Origin: Thermoplasmata archaeon
GTDB taxonomy: Archaea; Thermoplasmatota; SW-10-69-26; JACQPN01; JAJPHT01
Reading direction: 5' to 3'
NCBI GenBank assembly: GCA_034667685.1
Contig: JAXDQU010000124.1
Span: 1-64,000 of the forward strand
DNA length: 64,000 nt
Shown: piece after piece, positions 4,076 to 58,198 of the stretch
Position numbering within the stretch: the first letter of the stretch is position 1
Layout: every line of letters begins with the position of its first letter
The notes under the pieces: model-generated
What the model saw: only the letters and a program-made list of their open reading frames with translations
Databases searched by the model: none
What the model was told of the DNA's origin: nothing
Translations under genes and position numbers: made by a program

Positions 4076-4474
4076 TCAGCCGACCAGGCGGCGGTGCTCG
4101 ACCTTGAGGCAACGGTCCTCGACGTAGCGCATGCCGGCCTCCTGCGCGACGCGGCGCGCCTCGTCGCTCTTGATGCCCAGCTGGAGCCAGAGCCCCTTCG
4201 CGTGGATCGCGGCGGCCTGGCGCGCGACCTCGGGCGCTTCGGCCGCGGGGCGGAAGACGTCGACGAGGTCCACGGGGCGGCCGATCTCCGCGAGCGAGCG
4301 GAACGCGCGCCGCCCCAGGATCTCCGGCGCGGTGGGGTTCACGGGGATGATATCATAGCCGTGGGCGAGCATGAAGCGCGGGATCTCGTGCGCGTCCTTG
4401 CCCGGCGTGGCGGAGCACCCCACGACGGCGATGGTCTTCGAGTGGCGGAGCACGTCAACGGGGTCGTCGGTCAT
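4076..4474 (-). CDS. CoA-binding protein (YccU-like)
   Basis: KTIAVVGCS...YDIIPVNP...VDLVDVFR...LWLQLGI...VEDRC; ATGA overlap with the upstream HAD gene. Confidence 0.9.
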   Translation of the reverse strand: MTDDPVDVLRHSKTIAVVGCSATPGKDAHEIPRFMLAHGYDIIPVNPTAPEILGRRAFRSLAEIGRPVDLVDVFRPAAEAPEVARQAAAIHAKGLWLQLGIKSDEARRVAQEAGMRYVEDRCLKVEHRRLVG

Positions 4475-5115
4475 AGCTGCATCAGCGCCTCGTGGAGCCT
4501 GGTGAGATCGGGGATGATGGCGTCGGGCTGCGCGGCGGCCAGCTCGCCCGGGTCGCCGTGGCCGTTCGCGACGGCGATGGTGCGCGCTCCCGCCCCGCGG
4601 CCGGCGACGACGTCCATCACGGTGTCGCCCACGAACGCCGCGCGCGGGGCCGCGACGGCGAGGCGCGAGAGCGCGATGCGGACGCCCTCGGGGTCGGGCT
4701 TGGGGCGCATCACGGTGTCGACGCCCACGACCACGGCGAAGTGGCGCTCGAAGCCCAGCGCGCGCAGCACGGTGCGGGCGGGCTCGACGGCCTTCGTCGT
4801 GACGACCGCCATCGGGACGCCGTGATATCGTTCCAGCGCCTCGCGCGCGCCGGGCGTGGGCCTGACGAGCCGCGGCGCCTCGGTCTCGAACCGCGCGCGG
4901 TAGGCGCGGACCAGGAGCGCGGCGTCGGCGTCGCTGGCCTGGCAAAGCTCGCGGAACATCAGCCGCAGCGGCGCGCCGATCATGCCGGCGACCTGGGCGC
5001 GCGGGACCGGCGGCATGCCCGTCTCGCGCAGCGCGTGCTCGAAGGCGTCGTGGATCGCGGCCGCGCCGTCGACGAGCGTGCCGTCCAGGTCAAAGAGCAG
5101 CGCCTCCGGGTCCAC
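4471..5115 (-). CDS. HAD-family hydrolase (phosphoglycolate phosphatase-like)
   Basis: FDLDGTL, VTTK, KPDPE, VGDTVMD motifs. Confidence 0.9.
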   Translation of the reverse strand: MDPEALLFDLDGTLVDGAAAIHDAFEHALRETGMPPVPRAQVAGMIGAPLRLMFRELCQASDADAALLVRAYRARFETEAPRLVRPTPGAREALERYHGVPMAVVTTKAVEPARTVLRALGFERHFAVVVGVDTVMRPKPDPEGVRIALSRLAVAAPRAAFVGDTVMDVVAGRGAGARTIAVANGHGDPGELAAAQPDAIIPDLTRLHEALMQL

Positions 5116-5151
5116 GGACCGCGGGAGGCGCGTCGAGGTCTTGAAAATTCT

Positions 5152-5223
5152 TCAGGGGAGCGACCAGGGGTCGACGTCGTCCGTGGGGACCTGAGGATGC
5201 TCCGAAGCCTTGGGGTTCGACAT
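5152..5223 (-). CDS. Candidate leaderless micro-ORF (23 aa)
   Basis: MSNPKASEHPQVPTDDVDPWSLP; TTGAAATA box 23 nt before the ATG. Confidence 0.4.
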   Translation of the reverse strand: MSNPKASEHPQVPTDDVDPWSLP

Positions 5224-8632: not shown

Positions 8633-10195
8633 CTACTTCTTGGCTGGCCTCGCCTCGCCGGGCGCCGCGGGCGTCAGGACCTTGCCCGCCTCGCCCTTCA
8701 TGACGAGCGTGCGGTGCGGGTAGGGGATGTCGATGCCGTTCGCCTCGAACGTCTTCTTGATCGCGAAGCGCAGGTCGGAGCCGATCTCGTTGCGGTCCTT
8801 GAACTCGGGGATCGTGACGCGCAGCGTGAAGTCGAGGCTCGAGTCGCCGAAGCTCTTGAAGCGCACGCGCGGCTCCCAGGGCGCATCCTTGAGGACCTTC
8901 GGGTGCGCCGCGGCGACCTGCAGCAGCAGGCGCTTGACGACCTCGGGGTCGCTCGCGTAATCGACGCCGACCTCGATGGGCAGGCGGAACTTCGAGTCCG
9001 GCCCTGTGTGGTTGACGATGCGCTTCGTCGCGAGGTTGTTGTTGGGCACGATGATGCTCTCGTGCGTCATGTAGTTGTAGAGCCGGGTCGTGCGCAGGCC
9101 GATCCGCTCGACGCGCGCCGTCTCGCCGCTCTCGAGCATGATATCATCGCCCTCCACGAAGGGCTGGTCGAGCATGAGGAAGACGCCGCTGAACAGGTTG
9201 CTGAACGTGTCCTGCGCGGCGAAGGCGATGACCAGCCCGGCAATGCCCGCGCCCGCGAAGATGATCGTGGGGTCCCAGCCGAGCTGCTTCAACGTCACGA
9301 TGACCGCCGCGACCCAGAAGACCACGACGCCCACCTTGCGCACCACCGGGATGACGACGTCGTCCATCTTCGTCTCGGTCTTCGGCGCGATCTCCTTCTC
9401 GTAGTAGTAGAGCCCCGCGTCGAGGAGCTTGTAGAGCACGTAGAGCCCGAAGATGCCCACGCCGATCGCGACCACGATGCGCGCCACGACCTCGGTGAGG
9501 AAGTTGCGCGGCAGCACGCCGATACTCCCCGAGAGGCCGAAGCTCGCGATGAACAGGAAAAGCGGCAGGCGCAGCTTGCTCGCCATCTCGGTCGAGACGT
9601 ACTTCGCCGCCCGCATCGTCGCGACGCGCACGAGCCAGTTCGCCGCGAAGACCGCGACGACGCCGAGCGCGACCCAGAACGTCATGTCCAGCAGGAACGT
9701 GCCCCAGACGTTGTCGAACGGCGCGCCCAACGGATTCTTGAGCGCATCGAGCACGCGCGGGGGCGCCGCGGAGGCCACCGGCACGTCCGCGGGGATCTTC
9801 GCCACGTCGCCCGTCGCGCTGTTGACCAGGCTGAACGTCACGTGGAACGTCGCCTCCGCGCGGGGAGCGTCGATCGGGCTGAACGTGATCGAGACGTTCG
9901 TCGCCACCGGATCGCCCGCCGCGCGCGCATGGAGCAGGAACTTGTTCGGCTGCACGTCCGCGGGCGCCCAGTCGCGCACGCCATCCACCACGACGCTCAC
10001 GTAGAAATCGGTCGTCGGGTTCAGGTTCGTGAGACCGAACACCGCCGTCGCGTTGCGGCCCGCGTCCGCCGCGAGCTGACCCGCGTCCACGCGCTCCACG
10101 AGCACGGGCGCCGTGTCGGCCGCCGCCGCGAAAGGAATCGCGACGAAGGCAAGGGCGAGGAAGAGGGCGAGGGTGAGGGACGCCGCGCGATCCAT
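8633..10195 (-). CDS. mscS: MscS-family mechanosensitive channel with extracellular N-terminal domain
   Basis: GAGIAGLVIAFAAQDTFSNLFSG, ERIGLRTT, IIVPNNNL, FKSFGDSSLDF, GIDIPYP. Confidence 0.92.
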   Translation of the reverse strand: MDRAASLTLALFLALAFVAIPFAAAADTAPVLVERVDAGQLAADAGRNATAVFGLTNLNPTTDFYVSVVVDGVRDWAPADVQPNKFLLHARAAGDPVATNVSITFSPIDAPRAEATFHVTFSLVNSATGDVAKIPADVPVASAAPPRVLDALKNPLGAPFDNVWGTFLLDMTFWVALGVVAVFAANWLVRVATMRAAKYVSTEMASKLRLPLFLFIASFGLSGSIGVLPRNFLTEVVARIVVAIGVGIFGLYVLYKLLDAGLYYYEKEIAPKTETKMDDVVIPVVRKVGVVVFWVAAVIVTLKQLGWDPTIIFAGAGIAGLVIAFAAQDTFSNLFSGVFLMLDQPFVEGDDIMLESGETARVERIGLRTTRLYNYMTHESIIVPNNNLATKRIVNHTGPDSKFRLPIEVGVDYASDPEVVKRLLLQVAAAHPKVLKDAPWEPRVRFKSFGDSSLDFTLRVTIPEFKDRNEIGSDLRFAIKKTFEANGIDIPYPHRTLVMKGEAGKVLTPAAPGEARPAKK

Positions 10196-10612: not shown

Positions 10613-10716
10613 GAGGAATTGAGCTGTTTGCGTCTGGCAACAAGGGGCTCGGGACAAGGCAGAGAGGCTTCCGCCCAATCGAACCCTTCATGCCATCGGG
10701 CCAGGGTCCCGTCCGT

Positions 10717-11133
10717 GTGGCCGTCGCCGCCGGCACGCAGGACCTCAGCCCCTCCGAAGAGCTGAGCCGCATCCTGCACGAGGTGCTCCAATCGCTCCAG
10801 GCCAGCCTCTCGGGCATCCTGGGAAGCGTGCTCGTGGACGACAGCGGCCTGCCCCTCGCCTGGGACCTCAAGGGCGGCGCCGACCCCACGCTGATCGCCA
10901 CCGCCGGCGCCATGCTATCACGCACCAGCGACCGCACCACCGAGATCCTCGACTTCGGCACCCTGCGCAACGTCATCCTCGCCTCCGACAAAGGCACCAT
11001 CGGCGTCTTCCGCGTCAGCGCCCGCACGAGCCTCGTCGTCCTCCTGCAGCCAAGCACCAACAACATCCTCGCCACCGTCGAGATCCACAAGGCCCTCGAC
11101 CGCCTCCGGCAGGTGATCGCCCCTGGTTTCTGA
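10717..11133 (+). CDS. Roadblock/LC7 domain protein
   Basis: GILGSVLVDDSGLPLA...LIATAGAML...VILASDKGTIGVF pattern; start GTG 10717 or ATG 10690. Confidence 0.85.
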   Translation: MAVAAGTQDLSPSEELSRILHEVLQSLQASLSGILGSVLVDDSGLPLAWDLKGGADPTLIATAGAMLSRTSDRTTEILDFGTLRNVILASDKGTIGVFRVSARTSLVVLLQPSTNNILATVEIHKALDRLRQVIAPGF

Positions 11134-12074: not shown

Positions 12075-13652
12075 TCACTTTCCCTTCTTCGTCCACTTCG
12101 GCGCGCGGAATTCCGTCATCCATTGCACCAGCAGTCGCACGCCGACGCCCGTGGATTTCTCGGGGCAGTATTCTTCGTTGAATCGGGGGGAGGCGCCTTC
12201 GTGCCAGGCGGTGCTGGCGATGTCGAGGTGGGTCCAGGGGTACTGCCCGTCGACGAAGTGGTCGAGGAACTTGCCCGCGGTCACGGCGCTGGCGATCCGG
12301 CCGGCGCTGTTCTTGACGTCGGCGACCTGCGACTTGATCATCTCGCCGTATTCGTCGAAGAAGGGGAGGGGCCAGACGCGCTCGTTGGTGATATCACCGG
12401 CCGCGCGCAGGGCGGAGAGCAGCTCGTCGGAGTTGCCCATGCCGGCGATGGCGTGGTGGCCCACGGCGATGACGCAGCCGCCGGTGAGGGTGGAGAGCTC
12501 GACGAGGGCGTCGGGCTCGTAGCGGGCGGCGTAGTGGAGGGCGTCGCTGAGGATCACGCGTCCTTCGGCGTCGGTGTTGATGATCTCGATGGTCTTGCCG
12601 CTCAGGGTCGTGACGACGTCGCCGGGCTTGTAGGCGTTGCCGGAGGGGAGGTTGTCGGTGAAGGGGGCGAGGGCGATGACGCGGAGGGGGAGTTCGAGGC
12701 GCTTGGCGGCGACGACCGCTGCCATGACGGCGCTGGCGCCCGACTTGTCCATCTTCATCGCTTCCATGCCGTCGGCGGGCTTGATGGAGATGCCGCCGCT
12801 GTCGAACGTGATGCCTTTGCCGACCAGCACGACCGTGCGTTTCGCGTCCTTGGGGGCGTGCTCCAGGATGCAGAAGCGCGGCTCGCGGACGCTGCCCCGC
12901 GCGACGGCCAGCACGCCGCCCATGCCGAGCTTCTCGATCTCGGCCTTGTTCATGACGTGAGCTTTGAGGCCGTGCTCGCGGGCGAGGGCGTGGACGCGTT
13001 CGCCGTAGCGCTCGGGGGCGGCGTCGTCGCCGCTCCAGGCGGCCCAGTCGCGGCATTGGTTCGTGGCCTCGGCGATGATGGCGCCGACGCGCGCTCCCTC
13101 GGTGGCGGCGCGGGCGGCGGGGGCGCGCTTGTCGACGAGAACGAGGCGCGCGAGGGGCTTCTTGCCTTCGTCCTTCTTCTTGGCGCCCTTGTAGACGTCG
13201 AGCTTGTAGAGGCCCAGGAGCGCGCCTTCGGCCATGGCCTGCGCGACGTCGCGCGGCGCGAGGCCTGCGCCGCCCACGCCCAGGAGGACGCTGCGCGCTT
13301 CGGTGACGCCGAGGTCGCGGGCGCGGCGGGCGACGATCGCGCTGACGCGGCGCACCTTGTCGGGCGTGAGCTTCTCGACGGGCCCCATGCCCACCAGCAG
13401 GACGCGTTTGATATCACCCGACGCGGGGTGGACCATGACGGTCTCCTTGAGCTTGCCCTTGAAGTCGCCCGCGGCGAGCACGCGGGAGAGGGCGCCGCCG
13501 GTCGCTTCGTCGACGGCCTTGGTGACGCCGCCGAAGGATTCGACGCCTTCGAACGCGTCGACGATCAGCAGCTCGGCGGCCTGCTTCGTGACGTCCGCAT
13601 GCTCGACGGTGACCACGACGCCCTTGGGCTCGGCGGGCTTCCCCTTCGCCAT
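12075..13652 (-). CDS. pepA: Leucyl aminopeptidase (M17)
   Basis: VGKGITFDSGGISIKP, MKMDKSGA, NTDAEGR, TLTGG, WTHLDIA. Confidence 0.95.
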   Translation of the reverse strand: MAKGKPAEPKGVVVTVEHADVTKQAAELLIVDAFEGVESFGGVTKAVDEATGGALSRVLAAGDFKGKLKETVMVHPASGDIKRVLLVGMGPVEKLTPDKVRRVSAIVARRARDLGVTEARSVLLGVGGAGLAPRDVAQAMAEGALLGLYKLDVYKGAKKKDEGKKPLARLVLVDKRAPAARAATEGARVGAIIAEATNQCRDWAAWSGDDAAPERYGERVHALAREHGLKAHVMNKAEIEKLGMGGVLAVARGSVREPRFCILEHAPKDAKRTVVLVGKGITFDSGGISIKPADGMEAMKMDKSGASAVMAAVVAAKRLELPLRVIALAPFTDNLPSGNAYKPGDVVTTLSGKTIEIINTDAEGRVILSDALHYAARYEPDALVELSTLTGGCVIAVGHHAIAGMGNSDELLSALRAAGDITNERVWPLPFFDEYGEMIKSQVADVKNSAGRIASAVTAGKFLDHFVDGQYPWTHLDIASTAWHEGASPRFNEEYCPEKSTGVGVRLLVQWMTEFRAPKWTKKGK

Positions 13653-26288: not shown

Positions 26289-27260
26289 ATGGACCTCGGG
26301 AAGCTGCTGCGCAGCGCCGACGGCCGCGCCGCGCTCGACCTCGTGCGCCCGCCCACGCCCCCGGCCGAGACGGTGCCGCTCCTCGCGCCGCCGGCCCGCG
26401 CCAGCCCGGCCATCGCCGCGTCCGCCTTCGCGCACCTCCTGCGCGCCGAGGCCACGCGCCGCAACCCGGCCGCCACGCTTCGAACGCTCGCCGAGCCCGC
26501 CGACGCGCCCGCCCTCGACCCCGACGTCGCGCAGGCCGCCGAGCGGACGCTCGACGAGGCGCGCCGCGACTTCGCGCGCTACGTCGCGCTCCGCGAGCCC
26601 GACGCCACCCTGCGCGCCGCGATGGCCGCCCACGCGCTCCTGCTCGCGCGCCTCGACGCGCGCGACGCCCGCCTCGGCCAGCCCGAGGAGCCCGACGACG
26701 TCGCCGACCTCCTCGCCATGCTCGCGCTCGTCCCGTGGGACCAGATGGGCGGCGCCGCCGAGGCGGACCTGGGGGATGATATCATCCTCGACGGGCGGCT
26801 CGTCCTCCTGAAGACCTCGCGCCGCGCGCCGCCCGACGCGGACGCGATGCGCGAGCTCGTCGCGCGCCTCGTGCTGGTCCGCGTCGAACGCGACGTCCGC
26901 GAGGTCGCGATCTACGCCGCGCGCCACGGCCGCCTCTGGACCTGGCCCGCCGAGCCCATCGTCTCCCACCCCGCGTTCCCCCAGCTGGAGCGCTGGCTCC
27001 TCCGCCAGCGCGCGCCAGCCGGCCCCGCCAAGCCCCCCTCGTGGGCCCGCCAGCGCGCCTCGCCGGGTGTGGGCTCCGCGGCGATCCGGCGCGCAGGCAA
27101 GGCCGAGACGAAGAAGCCGCCACGCCCGCCACAGGACGCGCCCCAGGCAAGGTTCCGCGGCGAGCGCGAACCGGAGCCCGAGGAGCCGGCCCCGCCCCGG
27201 CGCGCGCCGCGTCCCGACTGGCGCAAGGGCTCCGCATGGCGGCGCGAGCGCGGGCGGTGA
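26289..27260 (+). CDS. Hypothetical protein, possible degenerate PD-(D/E)XK fold with basic disordered tail
   Basis: DDIILDGRLVLLKTS...EVAIYAARHGRLWTWP; CTTATTCAA box upstream. Confidence 0.65.
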   Translation: MDLGKLLRSADGRAALDLVRPPTPPAETVPLLAPPARASPAIAASAFAHLLRAEATRRNPAATLRTLAEPADAPALDPDVAQAAERTLDEARRDFARYVALREPDATLRAAMAAHALLLARLDARDARLGQPEEPDDVADLLAMLALVPWDQMGGAAEADLGDDIILDGRLVLLKTSRRAPPDADAMRELVARLVLVRVERDVREVAIYAARHGRLWTWPAEPIVSHPAFPQLERWLLRQRAPAGPAKPPSWARQRASPGVGSAAIRRAGKAETKKPPRPPQDAPQARFRGEREPEPEEPAPPRRAPRPDWRKGSAWRRERGR

Positions 27261-37206: not shown

Positions 37207-38415
37207 ATGATCGGCGAGCAGATCCGGCAGGACTTCCCGCTGCTATCAAAATTGGAGCCGCCGATCTACCTCGACAGCGCGTGCATGACGCTGAAGCCGC
37301 GCAGCGTGATCGACGCGGTCGTCCGCTACTACGAGGAGACGCCGTTCTGCGCGGGGCGCGCGGTCTACGAGGGCTCGCTCGCCGTCGAGGAAGCGATGGA
37401 AGCGGCCCGGTGCGACCTCGCCGCGCTCCTGGGCGGCCGCCGCGAGGCGACCGTCTTCACCAAGAACGCGACCGAGGCGATCAACCTCGTCGCGCACGCC
37501 TTCCCCTGGCGCCCGGGCGACGTCGTGCTCACCACGGACCGCGAGCACAACAGCAACCTCGTGCCCTGGCAGATGCTATCAAGCCGCGGCGTCAGGCACG
37601 AGGTCGTCCCCTCGCGCGAGGACGGCACGCTCGACCTCGACGCGTGGCGCGGCCGGCTCGCGCGCGGCGACGTCGCGCTGGTGGCGGCGGTGCACGTCTC
37701 GAACCTCGACGGCTACGAGGCGCCCGTCCGCGAGCTGACCGCGATCGCGCACGAGGCCGGCGCGAAGGTCCTGCTGGATGGCGCGCAGGCCGCGGGCCAC
37801 CAGCCGGTCGACCTCGGCCGGGTCGGCGCGGACTTCTATGCCGTCTCGCTCCACAAGATGCTCGGACCCACGGGTGTCGGCGCCCTGCTCGCGCGCCCCG
37901 AGGCGCTCGCCGCGCTGGGCCCGTTCATGACCGGCGGCGACACCGTCGCGCGCACCACGTACGAAGGGGCGGACCTGCTCGAAGCGCCCGCCAAGTTCGA
38001 GGCCGGGCTCCAGAACTACGCGGGGCTCGCCGGCAGCGTCGCCGCGCTCGCGTACCTCCGCGGCCTCGGGCCCGAGCGCATCCACGCGCACGCCTGCGCG
38101 CTGATGCGCCGCGCCGCGGAGGGGCTCGCGGGCGCGCCCGGCCTCGCGCTCGTGGGCGCGCCGCTGGAGACGCGCGCGGGCATCGTCCCCTTCACGCTCG
38201 ACGAGCAGGATCCGCATACCCTCGCCATCCTCCTGGAGGACAAGCACCGCGTCCTCGTCCGCAGCGGCGACCACTGCCTCCACAGCTGGTTCAATGCGCG
38301 CGGCGTGCCCGGCGCCGTCCGGGCCAGCGTGGGCCCCTACACGACCGCGGCCGAGATCGACGCCTTCGTCGAGGCGACCCGGGGCCTGCTCCGCCAGCTC
38401 GCTCACAAGCGGTGA
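37207..38415 (+). CDS. Cysteine desulfurase (class V PLP, SufS/CsdA-like)
   Basis: YLDSAC, EHNSNLVPW, DGAQ, HKMLGPTG, RSGDHC. Confidence 0.9.
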   Translation: MIGEQIRQDFPLLSKLEPPIYLDSACMTLKPRSVIDAVVRYYEETPFCAGRAVYEGSLAVEEAMEAARCDLAALLGGRREATVFTKNATEAINLVAHAFPWRPGDVVLTTDREHNSNLVPWQMLSSRGVRHEVVPSREDGTLDLDAWRGRLARGDVALVAAVHVSNLDGYEAPVRELTAIAHEAGAKVLLDGAQAAGHQPVDLGRVGADFYAVSLHKMLGPTGVGALLARPEALAALGPFMTGGDTVARTTYEGADLLEAPAKFEAGLQNYAGLAGSVAALAYLRGLGPERIHAHACALMRRAAEGLAGAPGLALVGAPLETRAGIVPFTLDEQDPHTLAILLEDKHRVLVRSGDHCLHSWFNARGVPGAVRASVGPYTTAAEIDAFVEATRGLLRQLAHKR

Positions 38416-39127: not shown

Positions 39128-39181
39128 GCTCGTTCGATTCCAGGCCTTGGATATAATGATGATGGGAACCCTGGGGCCACC

Positions 39182-39721
39182 GTGCTGAGGATCTGGACCA
39201 TCGGCCACAGCAACCGGACGCCCGAGGCGTTCCTCGACCTGCTCGTCCAGAATGGCATCCAGCGCGTCGTCGACGTGCGGACCCTTCCCCGCTCGCGGCA
39301 CAATGCATGGACCAGCGTGGACGCGCTGCCGGGCATCCTGGCGGCGCGCGGCATCTCCCACGCGCACCTTCCCACGCTGGGCGGCCTGCGCAAGCCGAGG
39401 CCCGAGAGCCCCAACGGCGCGTGGCGCAACGAGAGCTTCCGCGGCTACGCGGACCACATGCGCACGCCCGAGTTCGAGGAAGGGCTCGCCACGCTCCTGC
39501 GCGGGGCGGCGCGCGAGCCCACGGCGATCATGTGCGCGGAGGCCGTGCCCTGGCGCTGCCACCGCTCGCTGATCGCGGACGCCCTCCTGGCGCGCGGCGT
39601 CGAGGTGCTTGATATCATCGACGGGCCGGCCAAGCCGCATCGGATGACGCCCTTCGCGCGCGTCGTCGAGGGGCGCGTCACGTACCCGCCCGCGGGCGGC
39701 GAGCAGACGCGGCTCCTCTAG
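39182..39721 (+). CDS. DUF488 protein
   Basis: IWTIGHSNR, VDVR, LGGLR, SFRGYADHM, MCAEAVPWRCHRSLIADAL. Confidence 0.92.
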   Translation: MLRIWTIGHSNRTPEAFLDLLVQNGIQRVVDVRTLPRSRHNAWTSVDALPGILAARGISHAHLPTLGGLRKPRPESPNGAWRNESFRGYADHMRTPEFEEGLATLLRGAAREPTAIMCAEAVPWRCHRSLIADALLARGVEVLDIIDGPAKPHRMTPFARVVEGRVTYPPAGGEQTRLL

Positions 39722-41253
39722 TCGCGCGGCAGCGGCATGGGCGGCGCCAGGTCGAGCGGCGCCACGTCGCCCTTGCCCGTGAGCGACGGTCCGGAGACCT
39801 GGACGGCGACGCCCACCTGGCGCTCGCGGCTCTGGCCGCCCACGACGTCCGCGACGTTGCCCGCGCAGCCGTTGCGCGGCACGCAGCCGTCGGTGAACGC
39901 GACGTACCAGCGCCCATCCTTGTCGTGGACCATGTCGATGAAGTCCAGGAGGTTGCGGCAGCCGTGCGGCCCGCCGCCTCCGCCTTCGAGCCAGATGCAG
40001 CCCACCTGCACGGGGTCCTCGTTGGGCGTGACCTGCGTCGTGACGAACGTGGGGCTCGCGGACTCCGCGTCGTCCACGGTGGTCACGAACAGGTGCCACG
40101 CGCTGCCCAGCGTCGCGTTGCTCGGCGAGGCGCCGGGGTCTTGCGGGTCGCGCGTGCCCACGTACGCCATGGCGAGGCGGCCGTCGGCGCCGCTGGTGAT
40201 CGCGGTGAACTCGTCGAGCGTCTGGCCGGGCGGCGCGACGCGGAAGCTCTGGCAGGTCTGGAACTTGTCCTTGCTGCGGAGCAGATGCGTCATCTCGTCG
40301 TGGTCGCGGTAGAGCAGATACGCCGTGCCGTCGGGGGTGACGGTGATATCAGCGTCGATCTCGAGCTGGCCGAGCTTGGGGTCGCATTGGCGGACGCTCC
40401 ACGTGACGCCGCCGTCCTCCGAGAGCACGACGGTGAGGGGCCGCTCGCAGCGCGTGCCGCCCAGGTTGCCCAGCACGAGCGCGACGGTGCCGTCGGGGAA
40501 CGCGGCCGGGTGGCCGTTGATGTTGCTGCAGAGATGGTCGTTGACGTAGACCTCGCGCTCCAGCGGGAACGACAGCCCGCCATCGAAGCTCGTCATGCAC
40601 GAGGTGCCCATGCCGTCGGCCAGCCCGCCCAGGCCCGTGTCGAGCATCTTGTTGACGCACATGTAGACGAGGCTCGGGTACTGGCCGGGCGCGCGCGGGA
40701 TCGTCGCGGGCGGCGGCGCCGTCATGACCTTCTGGTGGTCGAGGCCGGGCGTGGCGCAGTCGAGAGGACGCTCCGTCCACGTGTTGCCATCGTCGTCGCT
40801 CCAGCTCATCCACGTGCACAGGAGCGCAGGGTGCATCTGGTTGGCGAAGACGCGGTCCGTGCCGGCGTCCACCCACATCATGGGGTCTGACGTGCCGAAC
40901 TGGTCGTCGGTCAGGGGCGCGCCGGGCGTCACGAGATCCTCGACCACCTTCCACGTCTTGCCGTGGTCGGTGCTGCGCCGCACCTGGTCGAGCGTCGTGA
41001 CGAAGAGGCTGCCCTTCGACGTCACGCCGACGTTGGGCTCGGCCCCCGTGCCGGGCACGAGCTGCTCGATCCCCTTCACGACGTCGGCGGGGACCGGGCG
41101 CGCGGTGCCGTTGCCATCGTACGCCACGGGCGCCGGCCACGTGTAGGCGGTCGCGGGCTGCGCGACGGAGAGCGGCTGGAGCGGGAGCGGCGCGCCGCCC
41201 AGGCAGCCGGAGAGCAGCAGCGCGAGCGCGAGGACGATCATCCTGTTACTCAA
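39718..41253 (-). CDS. Asp-box beta-propeller lipoprotein, sialidase-like
   Basis: Lipobox LSGC; STDHGKTW, SDDDGNTW, SFDGGLSF, SEDGGVTW. Confidence 0.85.
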   Translation of the reverse strand: MSNRMIVLALALLLSGCLGGAPLPLQPLSVAQPATAYTWPAPVAYDGNGTARPVPADVVKGIEQLVPGTGAEPNVGVTSKGSLFVTTLDQVRRSTDHGKTWKVVEDLVTPGAPLTDDQFGTSDPMMWVDAGTDRVFANQMHPALLCTWMSWSDDDGNTWTERPLDCATPGLDHQKVMTAPPPATIPRAPGQYPSLVYMCVNKMLDTGLGGLADGMGTSCMTSFDGGLSFPLEREVYVNDHLCSNINGHPAAFPDGTVALVLGNLGGTRCERPLTVVLSEDGGVTWSVRQCDPKLGQLEIDADITVTPDGTAYLLYRDHDEMTHLLRSKDKFQTCQSFRVAPPGQTLDEFTAITSGADGRLAMAYVGTRDPQDPGASPSNATLGSAWHLFVTTVDDAESASPTFVTTQVTPNEDPVQVGCIWLEGGGGGPHGCRNLLDFIDMVHDKDGRWYVAFTDGCVPRNGCAGNVADVVGGQSRERQVGVAVQVSGPSLTGKGDVAPLDLAPPMPLPRD

Positions 41254-44200: not shown

Positions 44201-45841
44201 GCCATCGCCGTCGAGGTCGAAGGGGGCGAGCGCTTCGCCATACTGCGCCAGCGCCAATTGATAGCTCAGGTAGGAATTCTCCGCGAAGCTGCGCTCCCAC
44301 GTCCAGCGAGAGGCGCCGGTGGCCGCGTCGAGCCCGACCAGGCGGAGGCTCTTGGCAGGGAAGCGCCCGCCCGGCGGGGGGAGGGTGGGCACGTCGACCA
44401 GGCCCACGCCCAGGAGCCCCTTGCCCAGCGGCGCCGCGCGGCCCCAGCCTTGCAGGCGCGCGTCCCACATGGGCGTGCCGTTGGCGCCGCGCAGCGGGAC
44501 GAAGTGCGTCCGGTACTGGCCGTTCGGCGTCGCCTGGAGGCCAAGCTCCTGGCCGACCCACGAGGCCATGACATCAGGGTGGCCGTCCCCGTCGAGGTCC
44601 GCGACGGCGTACGCCTGCTCCCACTGGAGCTGCTCGACGCCCTCTTCCAGCGGCGGGCTGGCGCGCGGGGCCAGCGCATCGACGAGCGTGCGGTTCCAGC
44701 CCACCTCGCCAGACCTGCCCTCCAATGCCAGGACGGCCATCCCGCGGCCCGCCTGCGCGAGGCTCGCGCCGGTGGGATCGACGATGCCGGTGGCGCGCGG
44801 GCTCTCCAGCGTCGTCTGGTCGAGCACGATCTCGGGCCAGGCGTCGCCGTCGAGGTCGGTGGCGCTCGCGAGCCACGTCAGGTTCGTGACCTTGCCGTCG
44901 GCCGCGAGGTCGCGCGTCCACATCGTGGTGCCGTTGGCCGCGTCGAGCGCGAGGACGTGGTCGGTCGCCGCGGCGGCGTCGTACGAGAAGGGCGTCTGGA
45001 AGGGCAGGTCGAGCGAGTTGCCGATCTGGGCGTTGGTGAAGCCGATGGGGTCCTCGGCCTTTTGCTCCAGGACGTCGGTGGTCTGGAGCACGACCTCGGC
45101 GCCATGCGGCGTGCGGGCCACCATGAGGCCCGTCGGGAAACCCTGGATGGAACGGACGAAGACGCTCGCGAAGCCATAGAGGGGCGCTGCGTCGTCGGCG
45201 CGCGTGTCGCGCCCATCCAGAGCGCGCGTCCAGAGCGGGCGGCCGTCCTTGCCCGAGAGCGCCTTGACGATGGCCGCGTACGTGACGACCTGGACGTTGC
45301 TCTGCGTGGGCGGCGCGTCCAGCCTCGTGCCGGGCTGGTAGCCGAACGCCACGACGTCGCATGCGCCGTCCCCGTTGAGGTCGGGCGCCGCGACGACGTT
45401 GCGGGGCGCGTCGGGGACCGGCTGGCCGAGACGCTGCCACGAGTCGCCATCGTCGCGCAGCGTGACGGCGAAGAGGTTGTCGGCGGCCCAGAGCTGCGAG
45501 CCGTTGGCGCCGCTCCACGCGACGACCTTGGAGGGGGCGTCCTCCAGCCGCGGGGGCGCGCGCAGGTCGAGGTCGTTCGAGATCATGTCGGGGACGCCGT
45601 CTCCGTCGAGGTCGCACGTCGCGTGCACGTCGCGGTACGTCGTGCGCGGCGCGTTCCCGTCCACGGCCGCGGCCGCGGCGGCCTCCGTCGCGCCCGGCGG
45701 GAGCGCGCCCATCCGCTCCATCTGCGCGAGGAAGGCCGGACCCATGCCTCCCACCTGCGGCGCGACCTGGGGCGCGCTGGCCCGGGCCGGCGCGAGGGGC
45801 GCCAGGAGCAGCACGGCCAGGAGCGCGGGGAGCAGCCTCAT
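41246..45841 (-). CDS. Large membrane-anchored FG-GAP/VCBS plus PQQ-like repeat protein (1531 aa)
   Basis: Signal peptide; many DLDGDGxPD loops and (D/S)GxxGxxLW motifs; central TM pair; C-terminal TM. Confidence 0.88.
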   Translation of the reverse strand: MRLLPALLAVLLLAPLAPARASAPQVAPQVGGMGPAFLAQMERMGALPPGATEAAAAAAVDGNAPRTTYRDVHATCDLDGDGVPDMISNDLDLRAPPRLEDAPSKVVAWSGANGSQLWAADNLFAVTLRDDGDSWQRLGQPVPDAPRNVVAAPDLNGDGACDVVAFGYQPGTRLDAPPTQSNVQVVTYAAIVKALSGKDGRPLWTRALDGRDTRADDAAPLYGFASVFVRSIQGFPTGLMVARTPHGAEVVLQTTDVLEQKAEDPIGFTNAQIGNSLDLPFQTPFSYDAAAATDHVLALDAANGTTMWTRDLAADGKVTNLTWLASATDLDGDAWPEIVLDQTTLESPRATGIVDPTGASLAQAGRGMAVLALEGRSGEVGWNRTLVDALAPRASPPLEEGVEQLQWEQAYAVADLDGDGHPDVMASWVGQELGLQATPNGQYRTHFVPLRGANGTPMWDARLQGWGRAAPLGKGLLGVGLVDVPTLPPPGGRFPAKSLRLVGLDAATGASRWTWERSFAENSYLSYQLALAQYGEALAPFDLDGDGVRDLVTPAQPAFETGRDQALLATSSHVYEVRSGVDGHVLQTLSAWGPDGRVVACGDAGTKLTVVSGHARRVDVTRLDASSGQTLWRVPLHSSSAPHAATTGIELEALGAGCAGLPGGATLAWADLQDFSFERRHEVITPRARIANDGSLVWRSPNLSSPASTQPLSLASVDAPPAPLAPRVAWGVVVGVALGLALGLATLLALSRLPLKLLAAGVVLVVLVTALPVSPALSLSLGGRAPLPSPPPTLLPPPTEAATPEPNATTQRVFDDNDTLAFTYPIGDVTGDGRADVVADVYCVVRYDCEGAFRLPEDADHEAIWRCPPEHRLFGLDGARGTVAWAVDLNENSTQMGCSNARVVGTMRLANGTGIVVERTRVERPSLLFGAAVSLHEIAMIDARDGATLWRWAFQGREAEDGVMASQADTFFIQTFVASGALFVEGVGWSVGEVKSYVSAPGFNNGPILLDRYDSVEWVARLDPQTGHVAWRTDTFTADPAASREAWILDAAYAERDEDAPPVSVKDRAWDPAPCCPDLDGDGVPDVLYRENVWSPTPNANTGPRDFDVHLVAFGGATGKKLWDQTIRRDVPATTGAHPYPNPRLRLAAELNVPAHEVRILATADLDGDGASDVILRERLTGSEPRDVLSARSGRDGHLLWSREAPRAIDAALLGDSDGDGAADLVATEWYATSEDRAVVQPAHVFVLSGRTGKTLWTATSLEAPADVAYFLDAMRRAGIVDVNGDGVGEVPVDRPELLGDQTVLHHLSFLDGRTARPLSTVSCVGTFCSPIAAPDANGDGRREMGVLSGDVNDLWLTLYDGAGGGAIWSRRVSAVSTTGYAEALPYVSLQGLAQPDGRQDVLVDVHLAASQLQEGIFLTGNGSESLLYELDTVMPQLMLVTSRTGASTWSLPHLQQADLLAHVPGATPGEQAVEKLEAAAARTPFSVQDEGAPVLVPSILSGVGAFAGVVAVGGMLLRFRRLDKGVPDLE

Positions 45842-45850
45842 GATATCATC

Positions 45851-55216: not shown

Positions 55217-56196
55217 CCACGTACGCCGAGATCGCCGCGAAGCTGCGCACCCTGCAAGCCGAGGTCGCCAAGGTGGTCGTGGGCAAGGAGGCCGTGCTGG
55301 AGCGCGCCTGCCTCGCCCTCGCCGCCGAAGGCCACGTCCTGCTGGAGGACAACCCGGGCCTCGCCAAGACGCTCATGGTCAAGTCGTTCTCCCAGGCGCT
55401 CGGCATTCCGTTCCGCCGCGTGCAGTTCACGCCCGACCTGCTGCCCGCTGATATCACCGGCTCGTTCTTCTTCAACCTGCAGGCCAACAAGTTCGAGATC
55501 CGGAAGGGGCCCATCTTCACGAGCTTCCTGCTCGCGGACGAGATCAACCGCGCGCCGCCCAAGACGCAGAGCGCGCTTCTCGAGGCGATGCAGGAGCGCC
55601 AGACGACGCTCGAAGGCGAGACGCACGCGCTGCCCAGCCCCTTCTTCGTCTTCGCCACGCAGAACCCCATCGAGATCGAGGGCACCTACCCGCTCCCCGA
55701 GGCGCAGCTCGACCGGTTCCTGATGCGCCTCTCCGTGGGCTACCCGAGCCCGGCGGCCGAGGTCGAGATGCTGCGCCGCCGGGACGCCGCGAAGCAGGAC
55801 GAGACCAAGCTCGCGCCCGTGATGAGCGTGGAGGAGCTTCGCGCGATCCAGCGCGCGACGGAGCAGGTGCGCCTCGACGACGCGAACAAGGAGTACATCG
55901 TGCGGCTCGTCAATGCCACGCGGCAGGACCCGCGCCTTCAGCTTGGCGCCTCGCCGCGCGGGAGCCTCGCGCTCTTCAAGCTCGGCAAGGCGCACGCGAT
56001 GATGCAGGGGCGCGGCTACGTCGTGCCCGACGATATCAAGGCGATCGCCGAGGCGGCGCTCGCGCATCGCCTCGTGGTGCGCCCCGAGATGCGCGTGCGG
56101 GGCCTACGCGCCGAGCAGGTCGTGCAGGAGGCGCTGCGCAGCGTGCCCGCCCCCGCGCCGCCGGCCCCGACCTCGTTCGGCGTGGCGGGAGGCTGA
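55213..56196 (+). CDS. moxR: MoxR-family AAA+ ATPase
   Basis: DNPGLAKT, VQFTPDLLPADITG, LADEINRAPPKTQSALLEAMQE, YPLPEAQLDRF. Confidence 0.95.
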   Translation: MTTYAEIAAKLRTLQAEVAKVVVGKEAVLERACLALAAEGHVLLEDNPGLAKTLMVKSFSQALGIPFRRVQFTPDLLPADITGSFFFNLQANKFEIRKGPIFTSFLLADEINRAPPKTQSALLEAMQERQTTLEGETHALPSPFFVFATQNPIEIEGTYPLPEAQLDRFLMRLSVGYPSPAAEVEMLRRRDAAKQDETKLAPVMSVEELRAIQRATEQVRLDDANKEYIVRLVNATRQDPRLQLGASPRGSLALFKLGKAHAMMQGRGYVVPDDIKAIAEAALAHRLVVRPEMRVRGLRAEQVVQEALRSVPAPAPPAPTSFGVAGG

Positions 56197-56198
56197 AG

Positions 56199-57464
56199 TT
56201 GCTCACGCGCAAGGGCGCGCTGCTGGCGGCCGCGCTCGTGGGCGTCGTCTCGCTGGCGCTCCTGGCGCGCTCGTGGGTGCTGGCGCTCGCCGCGCTCCCG
56301 CTGCTCGCCGCCTTCGGCGCCGGGCTCGCCCGCGCGCTGCTGCCCGCGCCGCGCCCCGTGGCCCGCGCCGAGCATGCGCCCGAGCGCGCGCTGGCGGGCG
56401 ACGAGGCTGATATCACGGTCGTCGTGCGGGGCGCGCGGACGGGGCTCTGCGAGGTCGCCTTCCAGCCGCACCCCTTCCTCGAGCTGGAGAAAGGCGCCCC
56501 CGTCGCCCTGCGCCCGCTCTCGCCGCGCGACCCGGCGCGCTTCGACCTGCGCCTGAAGACCGCCGTGCGCGGGCGCGTGCCCCTGGGCGAGGCCGTCGCG
56601 CGCGAGCGGAGCCTCTTCGGCGTGCTCTCACGCGAGGGGCGCGCGCACGTCGAGCGGGAGGTCGTCGTGCTCCCGCGCTGGGAGCCGCTGCCCGAGATCC
56701 GCTGGCTCGCGCGGCGCCCTCGCGCGCTCCCCGTGGGCACCAGCATCGCGCGGCCCGGCGCGGGCGACGAGTTCTACGCGCTGCGCCAGTACCTCCCCGG
56801 CGACCCGATCGACAGCGTGAACTGGAAGCAGACCGCGAAGCTGGGCCGCCCGATCGTCAACGAGCACGAGCTGCAGGCGCCGGCGGACGTCCTCGTGGCG
56901 CTCGACGCGCGGGTGAGCGTGCACGCGGGGGCGGGCTATCATTCCACCTTCGAGGCCGCCGTCCGCGCGTGCGTCTCGATCAGCGAGCGCGCGCTGGCCT
57001 CCCGCGCCAAGGTCGGCCTGCTCGTGCTGGGCGCCCGCCTCGCGTGGATCCACCCCGCGCACGGCCGCCGCCAGCAGGAGAAGATCGTCGAGCACCTGCT
57101 CTCGGCCTTCCCGGGCGGCGACTACGACCTCGCCGACGCTTTGCTATCGCTTCCCCCGACCGTCGTCCCGCGCGCGGCCACCGTCGTCCTCGTCACGACG
57201 GGGTACGGGGACGCGCGGCTCCCGCGCGCGGTCGAGACGTTCGCGGCCTCCGGCGTGCGCGCGGTGCTCGTCGCCGTCTCCCCCGAGGCGTGCGAGATGG
57301 CCTCGGGCGACCTCACGCCGCAGGGCGAGGCCGCGGCGCGCGTGCTCATGGCGGAGCGGACGCGCTGGCTCGACGCGCTGCGCGGCGCGGGCGCCGACGT
57401 CGTCGCGTGGGACCCGCGCCAGCCGCTCGCGATCCCGCTCTCGCTCCTGGAGGCGCGCCGGTGA
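56199..57464 (+). CDS. DUF58 domain protein
   Basis: GDEFYALRQYLPGDP...VNWKQTAK...VNEHE. Confidence 0.9.
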   Translation: MLTRKGALLAAALVGVVSLALLARSWVLALAALPLLAAFGAGLARALLPAPRPVARAEHAPERALAGDEADITVVVRGARTGLCEVAFQPHPFLELEKGAPVALRPLSPRDPARFDLRLKTAVRGRVPLGEAVARERSLFGVLSREGRAHVEREVVVLPRWEPLPEIRWLARRPRALPVGTSIARPGAGDEFYALRQYLPGDPIDSVNWKQTAKLGRPIVNEHELQAPADVLVALDARVSVHAGAGYHSTFEAAVRACVSISERALASRAKVGLLVLGARLAWIHPAHGRRQQEKIVEHLLSAFPGGDYDLADALLSLPPTVVPRAATVVLVTTGYGDARLPRAVETFAASGVRAVLVAVSPEACEMASGDLTPQGEAAARVLMAERTRWLDALRGAGADVVAWDPRQPLAIPLSLLEARR

Positions 57465-58198
57465 GGACGCCCCCGCTCGTCCCCGCGCTCGCCCTCGCGC
57501 TCGCGTTCGCCGCGGCGGGCGGGATCGCGCAGGCGGGGCCCGACCTCGGCGCGTGGACCCAGCCCGCCCTCGTCGCGGGGCTCGCGTTCGCGCTGGGCCT
57601 CGCCGCGTCGTTCGCCCTCGCCCTCCTCGCCTCGCGCGACCCGGAGCGCGGCTGGGCCCTCTCGCGCCCCGCAGGCCTGGGCATCCTCGTCGTCGCGGGC
57701 GTCGCCGGCTTCCTCGCGGGCGTCGGGCCAGGCGCCGCGCTCGCCTCGGGCCTGGGCGCCGGCTGGCTCGCGGGGCGCAAGGGCGTGCATGCCTCCGACG
57801 TCGCGTTCCTGGGCGCCGCGGGGCTCGTCGCGGCCGGCGTGGCGCTCCAGCCCTCCGCGTGGAATGATAGCACGACGTTCCTCGCGCCCGCGGCGACGGT
57901 GGCGCTGGCCCTCGCGGCGCGCGAGGCGTGGGACCTCGCGGACCTGCGCCGCGCCGCCCGCGAGCGCGCGATCGACGCGCCGGTGGACGACCGATCGTGG
58001 GGCGCGCTCCTCGCGGCGCTCGTGGTCCTCGCGGGCGCCACGCTGGCGGGGCTCGTCCTGGGTCTCACGCGGGACGCGTGGCAGGCGTTGGGCCTGAGCG
58101 ATATCTCGATCCGCATCGGGGCCGCGACGATCCTGCTCGCTTCGGTGGTCGGGCTCGCGCGGCTGTTCCTGCCGGCGCGGACGCGCGCGAGGGGCTGA
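57461..58198 (+). CDS. Polytopic membrane protein
   Basis: GTGA overlap with GGAGG upstream; about seven TM helices. Confidence 0.7.
   Translation: MRTPPLVPALALALAFAAAGGIAQAGPDLGAWTQPALVAGLAFALGLAASFALALLASRDPERGWALSRPAGLGILVVAGVAGFLAGVGPGAALASGLGAGWLAGRKGVHASDVAFLGAAGLVAAGVALQPSAWNDSTTFLAPAATVALALAAREAWDLADLRRAARERAIDAPVDDRSWGALLAALVVLAGATLAGLVLGLTRDAWQALGLSDISIRIGAATILLASVVGLARLFLPARTRARG

Follow-up and report, generated by a model that had tools for sequence, protein, structure and literature searches.

An iterated, HIP1-like palindromic octamer in a single genus of GC-rich Thermoplasmatota archaea from soil

One genus of archaea writes an AT-rich palindromic octamer, TGATATCA, and a one-letter variant of it, TGCTATCA (or TGATAGCA on the other strand), hundreds of times into its genes against codon choice, as is known for HIP1. 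In the 3.48-Mb genome studied (71% GC), 378 palindromes were found where about 4 are expected, together with 329 variants, and among all 8-mers with counts of at least 60 the palindrome had the highest zero-order observed-to-expected ratio. An earlier note on the window, i.e., the whole stretch of 64,000 nucleotides that was analyzed, had proposed a chromosome-wide signal, and this genome-wide count bears it out.

The 12 palindromes and seven variants (five on the plus strand, two on the minus strand) that had been located in the window are all exactly in place. Shuffled sequences contained 0.05 palindromes on average (maximum 1), the same value as the earlier estimate of chance occurrence per window, and 0.29 variants. 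Eight of nine additional GATATC, GCTATC, or GATAGC cores are also present; the one at 60216 is not, the closest GATAGC being at 60156. As had been described, the host genes are unrelated and the sites use rare codons (GAT, NNT, CTA, TCA, and TAT). In contrast, the claim that the sites fall in different frames did not hold: GC3 phase puts every one of the 12 window palindromes in the reading NNT GAT ATC ANN, on the plus or the minus strand, while the variants read NTG CTA TCA in six cases and GAT AGC in one. AT-rich flanks did not prove general either, as the flanks carry just the ordinary three-base periodicity of codons. The sites are as follows.

4348..4355, TGATATCA: minus-strand reading TAT GAT ATC ATC (Y-D-I-I); exact match and GC3 phase
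9139..9146, TGATATCA: GAT GAT ATC ATG (D-D-I-M) in a minus-strand MscS-like channel gene (8636-10195); exact match and GC3 phase
10913..10920, variant TGCTATCA, plus strand: ATG CTA TCA (M-L-S) in a Roadblock/LC7 gene (10690-11130)
12389..12396, TGATATCA: minus-strand reading GGT GAT ATC ACC (G-D-I-T) by GC3 phase; the crude ORF call is on the plus strand, with GTG ATA TCA
13409..13416, TGATATCA: minus-strand reading GGT GAT ATC AAA (G-D-I-K); exact match and GC3 phase
26777..26784, TGATATCA: GAT GAT ATC ATC (D-D-I-I) in a plus-strand gene (26289-27257) without a Pfam family
27391..27398, variant TGCTATCA, plus strand: GTG CTA TCA (V-L-S) in gene 27273-27908
32574..32581, TGATATCA: minus-strand reading CCT GAT ATC AGC (P-D-I-S); the orthologous place in the congener G003 has TGATGTCG
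33042..33049, variant, TGATAGCA on the plus strand: minus-strand reading GTG CTA TCA; the orthologous place in G003 has the perfect palindrome
33422..33429, TGATATCA: NNT GAT ATC ANN phase; shared at the orthologous place with G003 and G004 but not with G001
37241..37248, variant TGCTATCA, plus strand: CTG CTA TCA (L-L-S) in a gene for a class-V aminotransferase (37207-38412), with TGCTGTCG at this place in G003
37574..37581, variant TGCTATCA, plus strand: ATG CTA TCA (M-L-S) in the same gene (37207-38412); present in G003, not in G001, G002, or G004
39610..39617, TGATATCA: plus-strand reading CTT GAT ATC ATC (L-D-I-I); exact match and GC3 phase
40344..40351, TGATATCA: GCT GAT ATC ACC (A-D-I-T) in a minus-strand BNR-repeat gene (39721-41253)
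45841..45848, TGATATCA: directly 5′ of the ATG of a minus-strand, 1531-aa FG-GAP gene (41249-45841), in ...TGA GAT GAT ATC ATG, its final A being the A of the start codon
54412..54419, variant TGCTATCA, plus strand: CTG CTA TCA (L-L-S)
55449..55456, TGATATCA: plus-strand reading GCT GAT ATC ACC (A-D-I-T); exact match and GC3 phase
56408..56415, TGATATCA: plus-strand reading GCT GAT ATC ACG (A-D-I-T); exact match and GC3 phase
57865..57872, variant on the minus strand, TGATAGCA on the plus strand: AAT GAT AGC ACG (N-D-S-T) in a plus-strand gene

The excess persisted under a synonymous-codon shuffle, the null that had been proposed as a check. Over 60 within-gene shuffles of 2,448 crude, GC3-based CDS calls covering 71% of the genome, the palindrome occurred 245 times against 3.68 +/- 1.94 (largest shuffle, 8), TGCTATCA 179 times against 6.85, and TGATAGCA 59 times against 0.75, so that the asymmetric variant is enriched both ways round (26- and 79-fold). 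Short true spacers totaling 128 kb held 12 palindromes where 0.245 are expected (49-fold), alongside 4 variants. No conservation was detected in the flanks beyond codon periodicity. These results support a DNA-level signal that is neither a codon nor a peptide artifact. Regarding the consensus TGMTAKCA proposed earlier, the single variants stand, whereas the double variant that it implies, TGCTAGCA, has only 3 copies genome-wide; this near-absence fits the strong avoidance of CTAG (observed/expected, 0.22). Other one-letter deviants cluster at the two ends of the word (TGATATCG/CGATATCA, n = 164).

Within genes, the palindrome is mainly read as NNT-GAT-ATC-ANN (Asp-Ile) and the variant as NTG-CTA-TCA (Leu-Ser). 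The frames are restricted to those that coding permits because an in-frame TGA is a stop codon, and the word, being AT-rich where the genome is 71% GC, forces the use of the rarest codons. By the crude gene calls, the word fills 234 of 536 x-Asp-Ile-(A..) contexts, 25 of 26 Cys-Tyr-His/Gln contexts, 149 of 883 (L/V/M)-Leu-Ser contexts, and 54 of 432 x-Asp-Ser-(A..) contexts. Filling is uneven even for the same double-stranded word, with Ala-Ile at 3/829 against Asp-Ser at 54/432, a gap for which lower context baselines account only in part. As the x-Asp-Ile-(A..) context holds 234 copies of TGATATCA against 34 of CGATATCA, the two codons need the T that precedes them and the A that follows. 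The two rare positions depend on one another: after a T, 89% of cases have GAT, compared with 22% otherwise (about 2% in control contexts). Of the 529 CTA codons, 187 have TCA as the next codon. The word also leaves a footprint in proteins. The residue after Asp-Ile is skewed to those with A-initial codons (Thr 2.4-fold, Ile 2.2-fold, Lys 1.9-fold, Asn 1.8-fold), a bias absent from the controls Asp-Val-X and Glu-Ile-X, and the tripeptide Cys-Tyr-Gln is enriched 3.0-fold.

Most copies of TGATATCA are single, dispersed, and inside genes. Over about 700 sites on 124 contigs, dispersal is Poisson (20-kb bins; mean, 4.16; variance, 4.05). The word is scarce on the low-GC contigs C118 and C42, with 0.86 and 0.48 copies per 10 kb compared with about 2. 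The orientation of the variant tracks the gene strand, with no other strand polarity. A search for arrays found none, only 11 pairs being less than 160 nt apart, 9 of them inside genes; neither inverted pairs nor a terminator-like arrangement of sites was found, and there was no peak of copies at promoter distance.

The trait is confined to one genus of uncultured, GC-rich soil Thermoplasmatota archaea. Palindromes number 53 to 378 in all five genomes of the genus and 0 to 9 in the 16 other genomes of the class, and the variant is enriched in all four congeners (63 to 229 copies). Congeners differ five-fold in density (37 to 203 per Mb). A sister genus of equal GC content (G007, 71.2%) has no palindrome in the 206 kb sampled of 3.1 Mb, where it spells the same dipeptide CGACATCA or GGACATCA. 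Conservation in relatives, which had been suggested as a check, was seen between G000 and G003 (797 kb sampled of 3.8 Mb). Within conserved amino-acid contexts, G000 shares 8 of the 10 Asp-Ile sites and all 5 of the Leu-Ser sites of G003, whereas of the places that lack the word in G003 just 6 of 30 and 12 of 102 are sites in G000 (P = 0.0012 and 6e-5, respectively). Ordinary GAT codons are retained in 79 of 237 cases. Xu et al. (PMC5861425) took retention of sites between species as support for selection over biased repair.

We also looked for a protein that might read the word. The genome has 8 methyltransferase-family hits, and profiling in relatives of the orphan and genome-private enzymes among them revealed none that is genus-specific. 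Two orphan methyltransferases, one C5 and one of N4/N6 type, were rejected, being conserved, including their recognition region, in motif-poor sister genera; two others are private to this genome among nine family genomes and were likewise rejected. One weak hit looks, from its sequence, like an RNA methyltransferase. The remaining hits are two C5 fragments, located at the ends of contigs C103 and C51, and a weak D12-type match within a 1090-aa ORF of a low-GC contig. The Vsr family was searched for and not found in the genome. Mismatch repair looks to be of the NucS/EndoMS type, for which we know of no methyl-directed strand choice.

A directional force works per site on the double-stranded word itself and accepts a weaker form, in which position 3 is C or position 6 is G but not both. 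It overrides codon usage, fills much of each permissive coding context, shifts amino-acid choice beside Asp-Ile, acts in spacers, and keeps existing sites. We tentatively favor an HIP1-like iterated palindrome maintained by a dimeric reader protein and a write-and-keep process, an explanation that we hold with less than even confidence. A symmetric 8-bp word with half-site tolerance would suit the recognition site of a dimeric DNA-binding or DNA-modifying protein, whose activity may date from the base of the genus. The likeliest source of the excess would be "write and keep" as for HIP1: recognition of the word, possibly via methylation, might skew mismatch repair or gene conversion across genome copies or cells, with word-matching alleles replacing near-matches more often than vice versa. 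Speaking against this explanation are that no reader was found among the methyltransferases profiled, and no Vsr, that mismatch repair looks to be of the NucS/EndoMS type, that retention between species is the argument for selection made by Xu et al. (PMC5861425), and that contexts for the same word are filled unequally (Ala-Ile against Asp-Ser).

Rather unlikely, though the strongest alternative, is that purifying selection for chromosome folding or segregation maintains the words as docking sites of a nucleoid-associated or condensin-loading type of protein. The symmetric site with half-site tolerance, retention in excess of that of ordinary rare codons, and occurrence in coding and spacer DNA alike would fit, and Xu et al. 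(PMC5861425) make the same case for HIP1. However, the Poisson dispersal shows neither regular spacing nor clusters at the 20-kb scale (124 contigs), a need for site density does not predict near saturation of cheap contexts (25/26; 234/536), congeners differ five-fold in density, and no candidate protein was found. Slightly less probable still is a self-DNA tag, an archaeal counterpart of uptake sequences or Chi, where preferential uptake, sparing, or recombination of tagged DNA would pile up the word by molecular drive. Lineage specificity, per-site accumulation, the protein footprint, and scarcity in atypical low-GC DNA are consistent with such a tag, and so, given small numbers, are spacer palindromes at 4 in 18 kb convergent and 2 in 39 kb divergent; a role of HIP1 in transformation has lately been proposed (PMC13756078; 10.1101/2024.09.10.611283). 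Yet the bacterial-type uptake genes ComEC (PF03772) and DprA (PF02481) were found in 0 of 9 family genomes, inverted pairs or a terminator-like layout are absent, there is no strand polarity beyond that of genes, and a literature search yielded no archaeal uptake sequence.

A signal in RNA or translation (codon pair, ribosome pause, or start-site element) is very improbable. The single codon frame per word, which might suggest it, is explained by TGA being a stop codon, and 13 start-like TGATATC-ATG cases, several preceded by GG to give a Shine-Dalgarno-like GGTGAT, have to be set against a variant enriched in both orientations, the excess in spacers, and the required outer T and A. An artifact, whether of composition in bases or codons, of a frequent peptide or dispersed repeat, or of assembly, can be dismissed with near certainty: GAT-ATC encoding a common dipeptide is the sole point in its favor, and it is refuted by the codon shuffle, the 206 kb of a sister genus of equal GC, the unconserved flanks and unrelated host genes, and the presence of the trait in five separately assembled genomes.

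Among known systems, matS, SBS, and NBS, to which the word had been likened, number in the tens and are confined to chromosome regions, and thus fit poorly with about 700 Poisson-spread palindromes and variants. Chi and KOPS/SRS are also genome-wide 8-bp words, read by DNA-processing machines, but they are asymmetric and co-oriented with replication, whereas ours is a palindrome whose variant follows the gene strand alone. DNA uptake sequences include the DUS of Neisseriaceae and the USS of Pasteurellaceae (PMC2397512, PMC3868556). Like these, TGATATCA is hyperabundant and lineage-private, accumulates site by site in the least-cost reading frames, leaves a protein footprint, and is rarer in low-GC DNA; unlike them, it is palindromic and unpaired (no terminators), its density is about five times lower, and neither ComEC nor DprA was found in any of the nine family genomes. 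Maughan and Redfield reportedly modeled molecular drive of uptake sequences, Findlay and Redfield are said to have studied their effect on proteomes, and we know of no uptake specificity in archaea.

The closest parallel is HIP1 (GCGATCGC), with the alternate HIPs of cyanobacteria, as portrayed by Elhai 2015 (PMC4390886), Xu, Lawrence and Durand 2018 (PMC5861425), and Rodriguez-Cruz et al. 2026 (PMC13756078). Unlike HIP1, TGATATCA resides in an archaeon, is AT-rich in a 71% GC genome, has a second favored deviant at position 3/6, and is tracked by no methyltransferase that we found; at about 1 site per 5 to 9 kb it is sparser than in the densest HIP1 genomes, and it is Poisson-distributed at 20 kb (124 contigs), whereas HIP1 is reported to be periodic at 10 to 90 kb. 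The likeness to HIP1 that had been suggested nevertheless holds: both are palindromic octamers, over-represented tens- to hundred-fold in genes and spacers, lineage-specific, and retained between species, with one-letter deviants mainly at the first and last positions.

The palindromic octamer TGATATCA was found 378 times in the draft genome (3,481,428 bases in 124 contigs, the largest of 167 kb; 71.1% GC), where about 4 copies are expected from base composition, and it had the highest observed-to-expected ratio of all 8-mers counted at least 60 times. Its variant, TGCTATCA or, on the other strand, TGATAGCA, occurred 329 times versus 19.7 expected. Within the window, which forms the first 64 kb of contig C124 and has a GC content of 69-76%, the earlier note had placed 12 palindromes and 7 variants by eye, and every one of these coordinates was exact; dinucleotide-preserving shuffles of the window gave expectations of 0.05 palindromes (largest count, 1) and 0.29 variants. 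Eight of the nine further hexamer cores that it named were present, and the one at 60216 was absent.

One-letter deviants of the palindrome were biased to its first and last positions (TGATATCG/CGATATCA, 164; TGATATCC, 52; TGATATCT, 29), with the position 3/6 variant in addition, and most inner changes were found 1 to 9 times. The double variant TGCTAGCA was counted 3 times in the whole draft, TGATACCA 6 times and TGATAACA 9 times. We then compared the coding copies with 60 synonymous-codon shuffles performed inside each gene of a set of 2,448 coding sequences, which were called by a crude script of our own as open frames with a GC3 signature and which cover 71% of the genome. This null is conservative, because the rare codons of the word remain in the pool.

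Sense-strand counts in called genes and means of the synonymous-codon shuffles
TGATATCA: 245 observed; shuffle mean 3.68 +/- 1.94 (largest 8)
TGCTATCA: 179 observed; shuffle mean 6.85
TGATAGCA: 59 observed; shuffle mean 0.75
TGATATCG: 38 observed; shuffle mean 3.07

For most remaining one-letter neighbours of the palindrome the ratio was 1- to 5-fold. The over-representation claimed from the window thus survives a codon-shuffled null (245 versus 3.68) and is present genome-wide (378 versus about 4). We rejected the idea that the variant is a frustrated intermediate, since other words one letter off were not enriched (TGGTATCA, 2 versus 1.9; TGATACCA, 1 versus 0.7), so that the acceptance of C at position 3 is specific.

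In the same genome, CTAG was strongly avoided (768 versus 3,415 expected; observed/expected 0.22), and TACGTA, AAGCTT, CTCGAG and CAGCTG stood at 0.1-0.31 of expectation. The top 8-mers under a Markov-6 model were G8/C8 runs (208 versus 61), and TCAGGACT, TCTGGACT and TCAGGGCT were also over-represented (114-146 versus 38-56); these 8-mers may be pieces of a repeat family.

Palindromes in the called genes were read as NNT GAT ATC ANN in 234 of 245 cases and as NTG ATA TCA in 11, the third frame containing a TGA stop. Variants were read as NTG CTA TCA (151), NNT GAT AGC ANN (54) or TGC TAT CAN (25), and the frames requiring GCT or GCA were rare (3 and 5). The congener G003 uses the same frames. 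The statement in the earlier note that the sites fall in different frames is incorrect because one frame dominates each word, in the called genes as in the window, where the GAT-ATC phase holds for 12 of 12 palindromes and the CTA-TCA phase for 6 of 7 variants. The host genes in the window are unrelated (an MscS-like channel, Roadblock/LC7, GNAT, a class-V aminotransferase, and BNR and FG-GAP proteins). The flanks of all 378 palindromes displayed a clean three-base periodicity and nothing more.

Amino acid contexts differed widely in how often they carried the word: 25 of 26 Cys-Tyr-His/Gln places did so, as did 234 of the 536 places where Asp-Ile precedes a residue with an A-initial codon, 149 of 883 [Leu/Val/Met]-Leu-Ser places and 54 of 432 x-Asp-Ser-(A..) places; the word was rare at Ala-Ile (3 of 829) and at Ile-Ala (5 of 649). 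GAT usage was 89% after T and 22% otherwise, against about 2% in control contexts, and the rare positions were strongly interdependent. TCA came next at 187 of 529 CTA codons, and CTA preceded 184 of 630 TCA codons; the word thus explains the odd codon use, about one third of CTA and TCA codons lying inside it. The footprint extended to the protein sequence. After Asp-Ile, residues with A-initial codons were enriched (Thr, 2.42; Ile, 2.24; Lys, 1.86; Asn, 1.79; Met, 1.42), and no such enrichment was seen after the control dipeptides Asp-Val or Glu-Ile; Cys-Tyr was followed by Gln and His at 3.0 and 2.1 times expectation, respectively. The force on the word suffices to shift the choice of neighbouring amino acids and, by our own estimate from context baselines, overrides codon bias by roughly thousand-fold in odds.

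Genes called with confidence are separated by 906 short spacers (128 kb, 68% GC), in which 12 palindromes were counted versus 0.245 expected, and 4 variants versus 1.05 expected. As the palindrome beats the variant there, the perfect palindrome is preferred where coding does not interfere.

Some copies overlap gene boundaries. The stop codon was the TGA of TGATATCA or TGATAGCA in 27 of the 2,448 called genes, 1,505 of which have TGA stops. At a recurrent junction, TGATATC-ATG, the last A of the word is that of the start codon in 13 start-like cases genome-wide, i.e., with an in-frame stop at most 90 nt upstream and an ORF of 60 codons or more. Several of these junctions are preceded by GG, which creates a Shine-Dalgarno-like GGTGAT, and the stop of the upstream gene often lies a few bases before. 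One junction is found in the window:

45841-45848, minus strand: the word, joined to the ATG at 45839-45841

Short GC-rich hairpins flank several intergenic copies (e.g., C20:20103, C21:54870 and C41:2622). A promoter or TATA reading was rejected, as the A/T peaks near -34, -28 and -10 in 1,810 upstream regions came with no concentration of GATATC, and no GATATC peak was present near -27. An autoregulated reader with operator arrays was also rejected, as neither the 30 clearly intergenic sites nor the 11 close pairs revealed one.

Palindrome and variant together occur about twice per 10 kb on all large contigs. Their dispersal is Poisson, with a mean of 4.16 and a variance of 4.05 in 20-kb bins and a median gap of 2,812 bases versus 2,841 for an exponential distribution; gaps below 100 bases are mildly under-represented (5 versus 14 expected), and 9 of the 11 pairs closer than 160 nt lie inside genes. 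Position along genes is roughly uniform. Variant orientation follows the gene strand alone, and no replication polarity was detected, orientation matching the sign of the GC skew at 59 of 141 variants, the same as for genes (439 of 1079). The low-GC contigs C118 (81 kb, 67.4% GC), C42 (63 kb, 66.4% GC) and C117 are poor in the word and presumably represent recently acquired DNA.

All five genomes of the genus carry the palindrome (378, 210, 141, 111 and 53 copies), versus 0-9 copies in the remaining 16 of 21 genomes of the class; a reversed control word was counted 0-4 times. The variant was enriched in all four congeners (72, 229, 151 and 63; controls, 0-24), and the density of the word differs five-fold among congeners. 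A 206-kb sample of the 3.1-Mb genome of G007, from a sister genus in the same family with equal GC content (71.2%), contained no palindrome and one variant, and spelled Asp-Ile-A as CGACATCA (12) or GGACATCA (7). No alternative hyper-abundant palindrome was seen in these 206 kb or in 180 kb of G009, from a sister lineage. The word arose once, in one genus, and equally GC-rich sister genera are without it. In another family of the phylum, the 3.3-Mb genome G030 contains 215 copies of TGATATCA versus 17 of the reversed control word, with the variant unenriched (87 versus 50); this excess may reflect ordinary GAT-ATC codon use or be a separate case. A partial check of the assignment to Thermoplasmatota found genes for the primase small subunit (PF01896) and for the PAC2 proteasome chaperone (PF09754) in the genome under study. 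A metagenome scan for nearer relatives of the locus returned one 72%-identical match of 1,975 bp, which is without the word, and 79 further loci were kept, with identities of at most 48%.

Conservation was analyzed with a 797-kb sample of G003, 533 kb of which aligned to the genome under study at 79% identity. In the aligned columns, the latter has 59 palindromes and 61 variants and G003 has 29 and 19; 20 sites are identical in both. Compared without regard to codon phase, 13 of the 59 palindromes (22%) were identical in G003 versus 35-45% of AT-rich control octamers, a comparison that is unfair because the A/T letters of the controls occupy constrained codon positions. It was superseded by a codon-aware test on a small sample, the places whose amino acid context is kept in both genomes.

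Presence of the word in the genome under study at kept contexts (small sample)
Asp-Ile: 8 of 10 places where G003 has the word, 6 of 30 where G003 lacks it; Fisher P = 0.0012
Leu-Ser: 5 of 5 places where G003 has the word, 12 of 102 where G003 lacks it; Fisher P = 6e-5

In the pooled conserved contexts of this small sample, 13 of 15 G003 sites were also sites in the genome under study, which had the word at 18 of 132 places without it in G003; an ordinary GAT codon of G003 was still GAT in 79 of 237 cases. This retention indicated that sites, once made, are kept. The genome under study has also gained many sites absent from G003. At differing sites, G003 carries the default codons (CGACATCA, TGATGTCG, TGCTCTCG and TGCTGTCG), and transversions are as frequent as transitions. 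An origin by transitions or deamination only was rejected, as G003 has TGCTCTCG, a transversion, more often (8) than TGCTGTCG (4) opposite TGCTATCA. Contigs of four public soil runs over positions 26001-46000 of the window were identical in two runs and represented strains 2-5% divergent in the other two; among the differences listed, none fell in a covered site, and with about one change expected there this carries no weight.

We next consider potential readers of the word. The genome was searched for four methyltransferase families, Vsr, the EcoRV endonuclease, NucS and MutS, which identified two orphan DNA methyltransferases:

C63:5378-6319: C5 type, complete, adjoining the primase small-subunit gene
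C106:109070-109960: N4/N6 type with an SPPY motif, among housekeeping genes

Both are also present, at 59-69% identity, in the sister genera poor in the word, are kept across the whole family, and have recognition regions conserved across genera. Two more methyltransferase-like genes occur in this genome alone among nine family genomes, and the remaining matches are contig-end C5 fragments (C103 and C51) or weak. Among the candidates profiled in relatives, which were the two orphans and the two genes seen in this genome alone, none had the distribution of a genus-specific reader. Contig C118 carries a weak D12-methylase match inside a 1090-aa ORF, which we take to resemble DUF1156-type methylases. 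The archaeal-lineage C5 methyltransferase has a copy, 91% identical, at a locus (L098) whose record is titled 'Proteobacteria bacterium', probably a mislabel; two other relatives with this gene are titled Thermoplasmatota.

The family search of the genome yielded no Vsr, and the EcoRV endonuclease family had no match there and none in control genomes either. NucS/EndoMS is present, and a MutS-like match was below threshold. ComEC (PF03772) and DprA (PF02481) were found in none of the nine family genomes (completeness 72-100%) and in 10 and 11, respectively, of 14 known genomes used as controls. Among the families searched in this genome, none was identified as the reader.

A per-site directional force acts on a double-stranded 8-bp word and is specific to one archaeal genus. 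Such a force is favoured over a need for a given number of sites because cheap contexts are filled almost completely, because dispersal is Poisson and because density varies five-fold among congeners. With these three features, biased conversion cannot be told apart from per-site selection, nor from a drive by uptake or recombination. A dimeric sequence-specific protein would recognize the word, with methylation as a possible basis of recognition, and the excess might build up by a 'write and keep' process like that of HIP1, the highly iterated palindrome of cyanobacteria, in which repair or gene conversion is biased by word recognition. As less likely rivals, selection at each site might keep the sites, or a drive by uptake or recombination might accumulate the word. 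Beyond biased repair or conversion, we tentatively raise the possibility that the octamer is a recognition tag of an undescribed archaeal system, by which 'own' DNA is singled out for end-processing, for exchange or for gene conversion between copies; it would then be a counterpart of DUS or Chi, would date from the origin of one genus of soil Thermoplasmatota, and would still be on the increase, with codons and even amino acids changed in the process.

Supplementary tables aside, the searched literature yielded no account of a comparable word from an archaeon. Short words in great excess, such as HIP1, the DNA uptake sequences (DUS/USS) and Chi, are rare examples of a force at the DNA level that visibly overrides protein coding. 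Here, the 71% GC of the genome leaves an AT-rich word with a background near zero, and the reader should be findable by gene-content comparison given the single origin, the sister genera without the word and the five-fold spread in density. Public soil metagenome reads can decide between selection and biased conversion. For practical work with these genomes, the word offers a strong marker in binning and in the detection of foreign DNA.

Known systems resemble the word to different degrees. Restriction-modification targets come with a cognate endonuclease, on which the EcoRV search is uninformative here, and are palindromes that are usually avoided; the word is enriched. Transcription factor operators lie at a fixed upstream distance or in arrays, unlike the word, which is mostly inside genes and forms no arrays. 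The polarity of Chi and KOPS follows replication, but the word is a palindrome and its variant has no replication polarity. With DUS/USS, the evolutionary signature is in common and the machinery is not, as ComEC and DprA were not found in the nine family genomes; moreover, DUS/USS frequently form inverted pairs as intergenic terminators, whereas only 11 pairs of the word are closer than 160 nt, 9 of them in genes. HIP1 has, to our knowledge, found no explanation after three decades. Its spacing is reportedly quasi-periodic at 10-90 kb; for the word, a draft of 124 contigs allowed dispersal to be assessed at 20 kb, where it is Poisson. According to Elhai (2015; PMC4390886), a methyltransferase for HIP1 or its core is present wherever HIP1 is abundant; for the archaeal word, none of the methyltransferases profiled tracks its distribution. 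Xu et al. (2018; PMC5861425) describe HIP1 sites as kept between relatives more often than neutrality predicts, and a further source for comparison is Rodriguez-Cruz et al. (2026; PMC13756078). The word shares with HIP1 a palindromic octamer, a genome-wide excess beyond an order of magnitude, dispersal in coding and non-coding DNA, sites kept between related genomes and deviants at the two end positions. Together with the alternate HIPs, HIP1 is the closest known system and has most descriptive features in common with the word.
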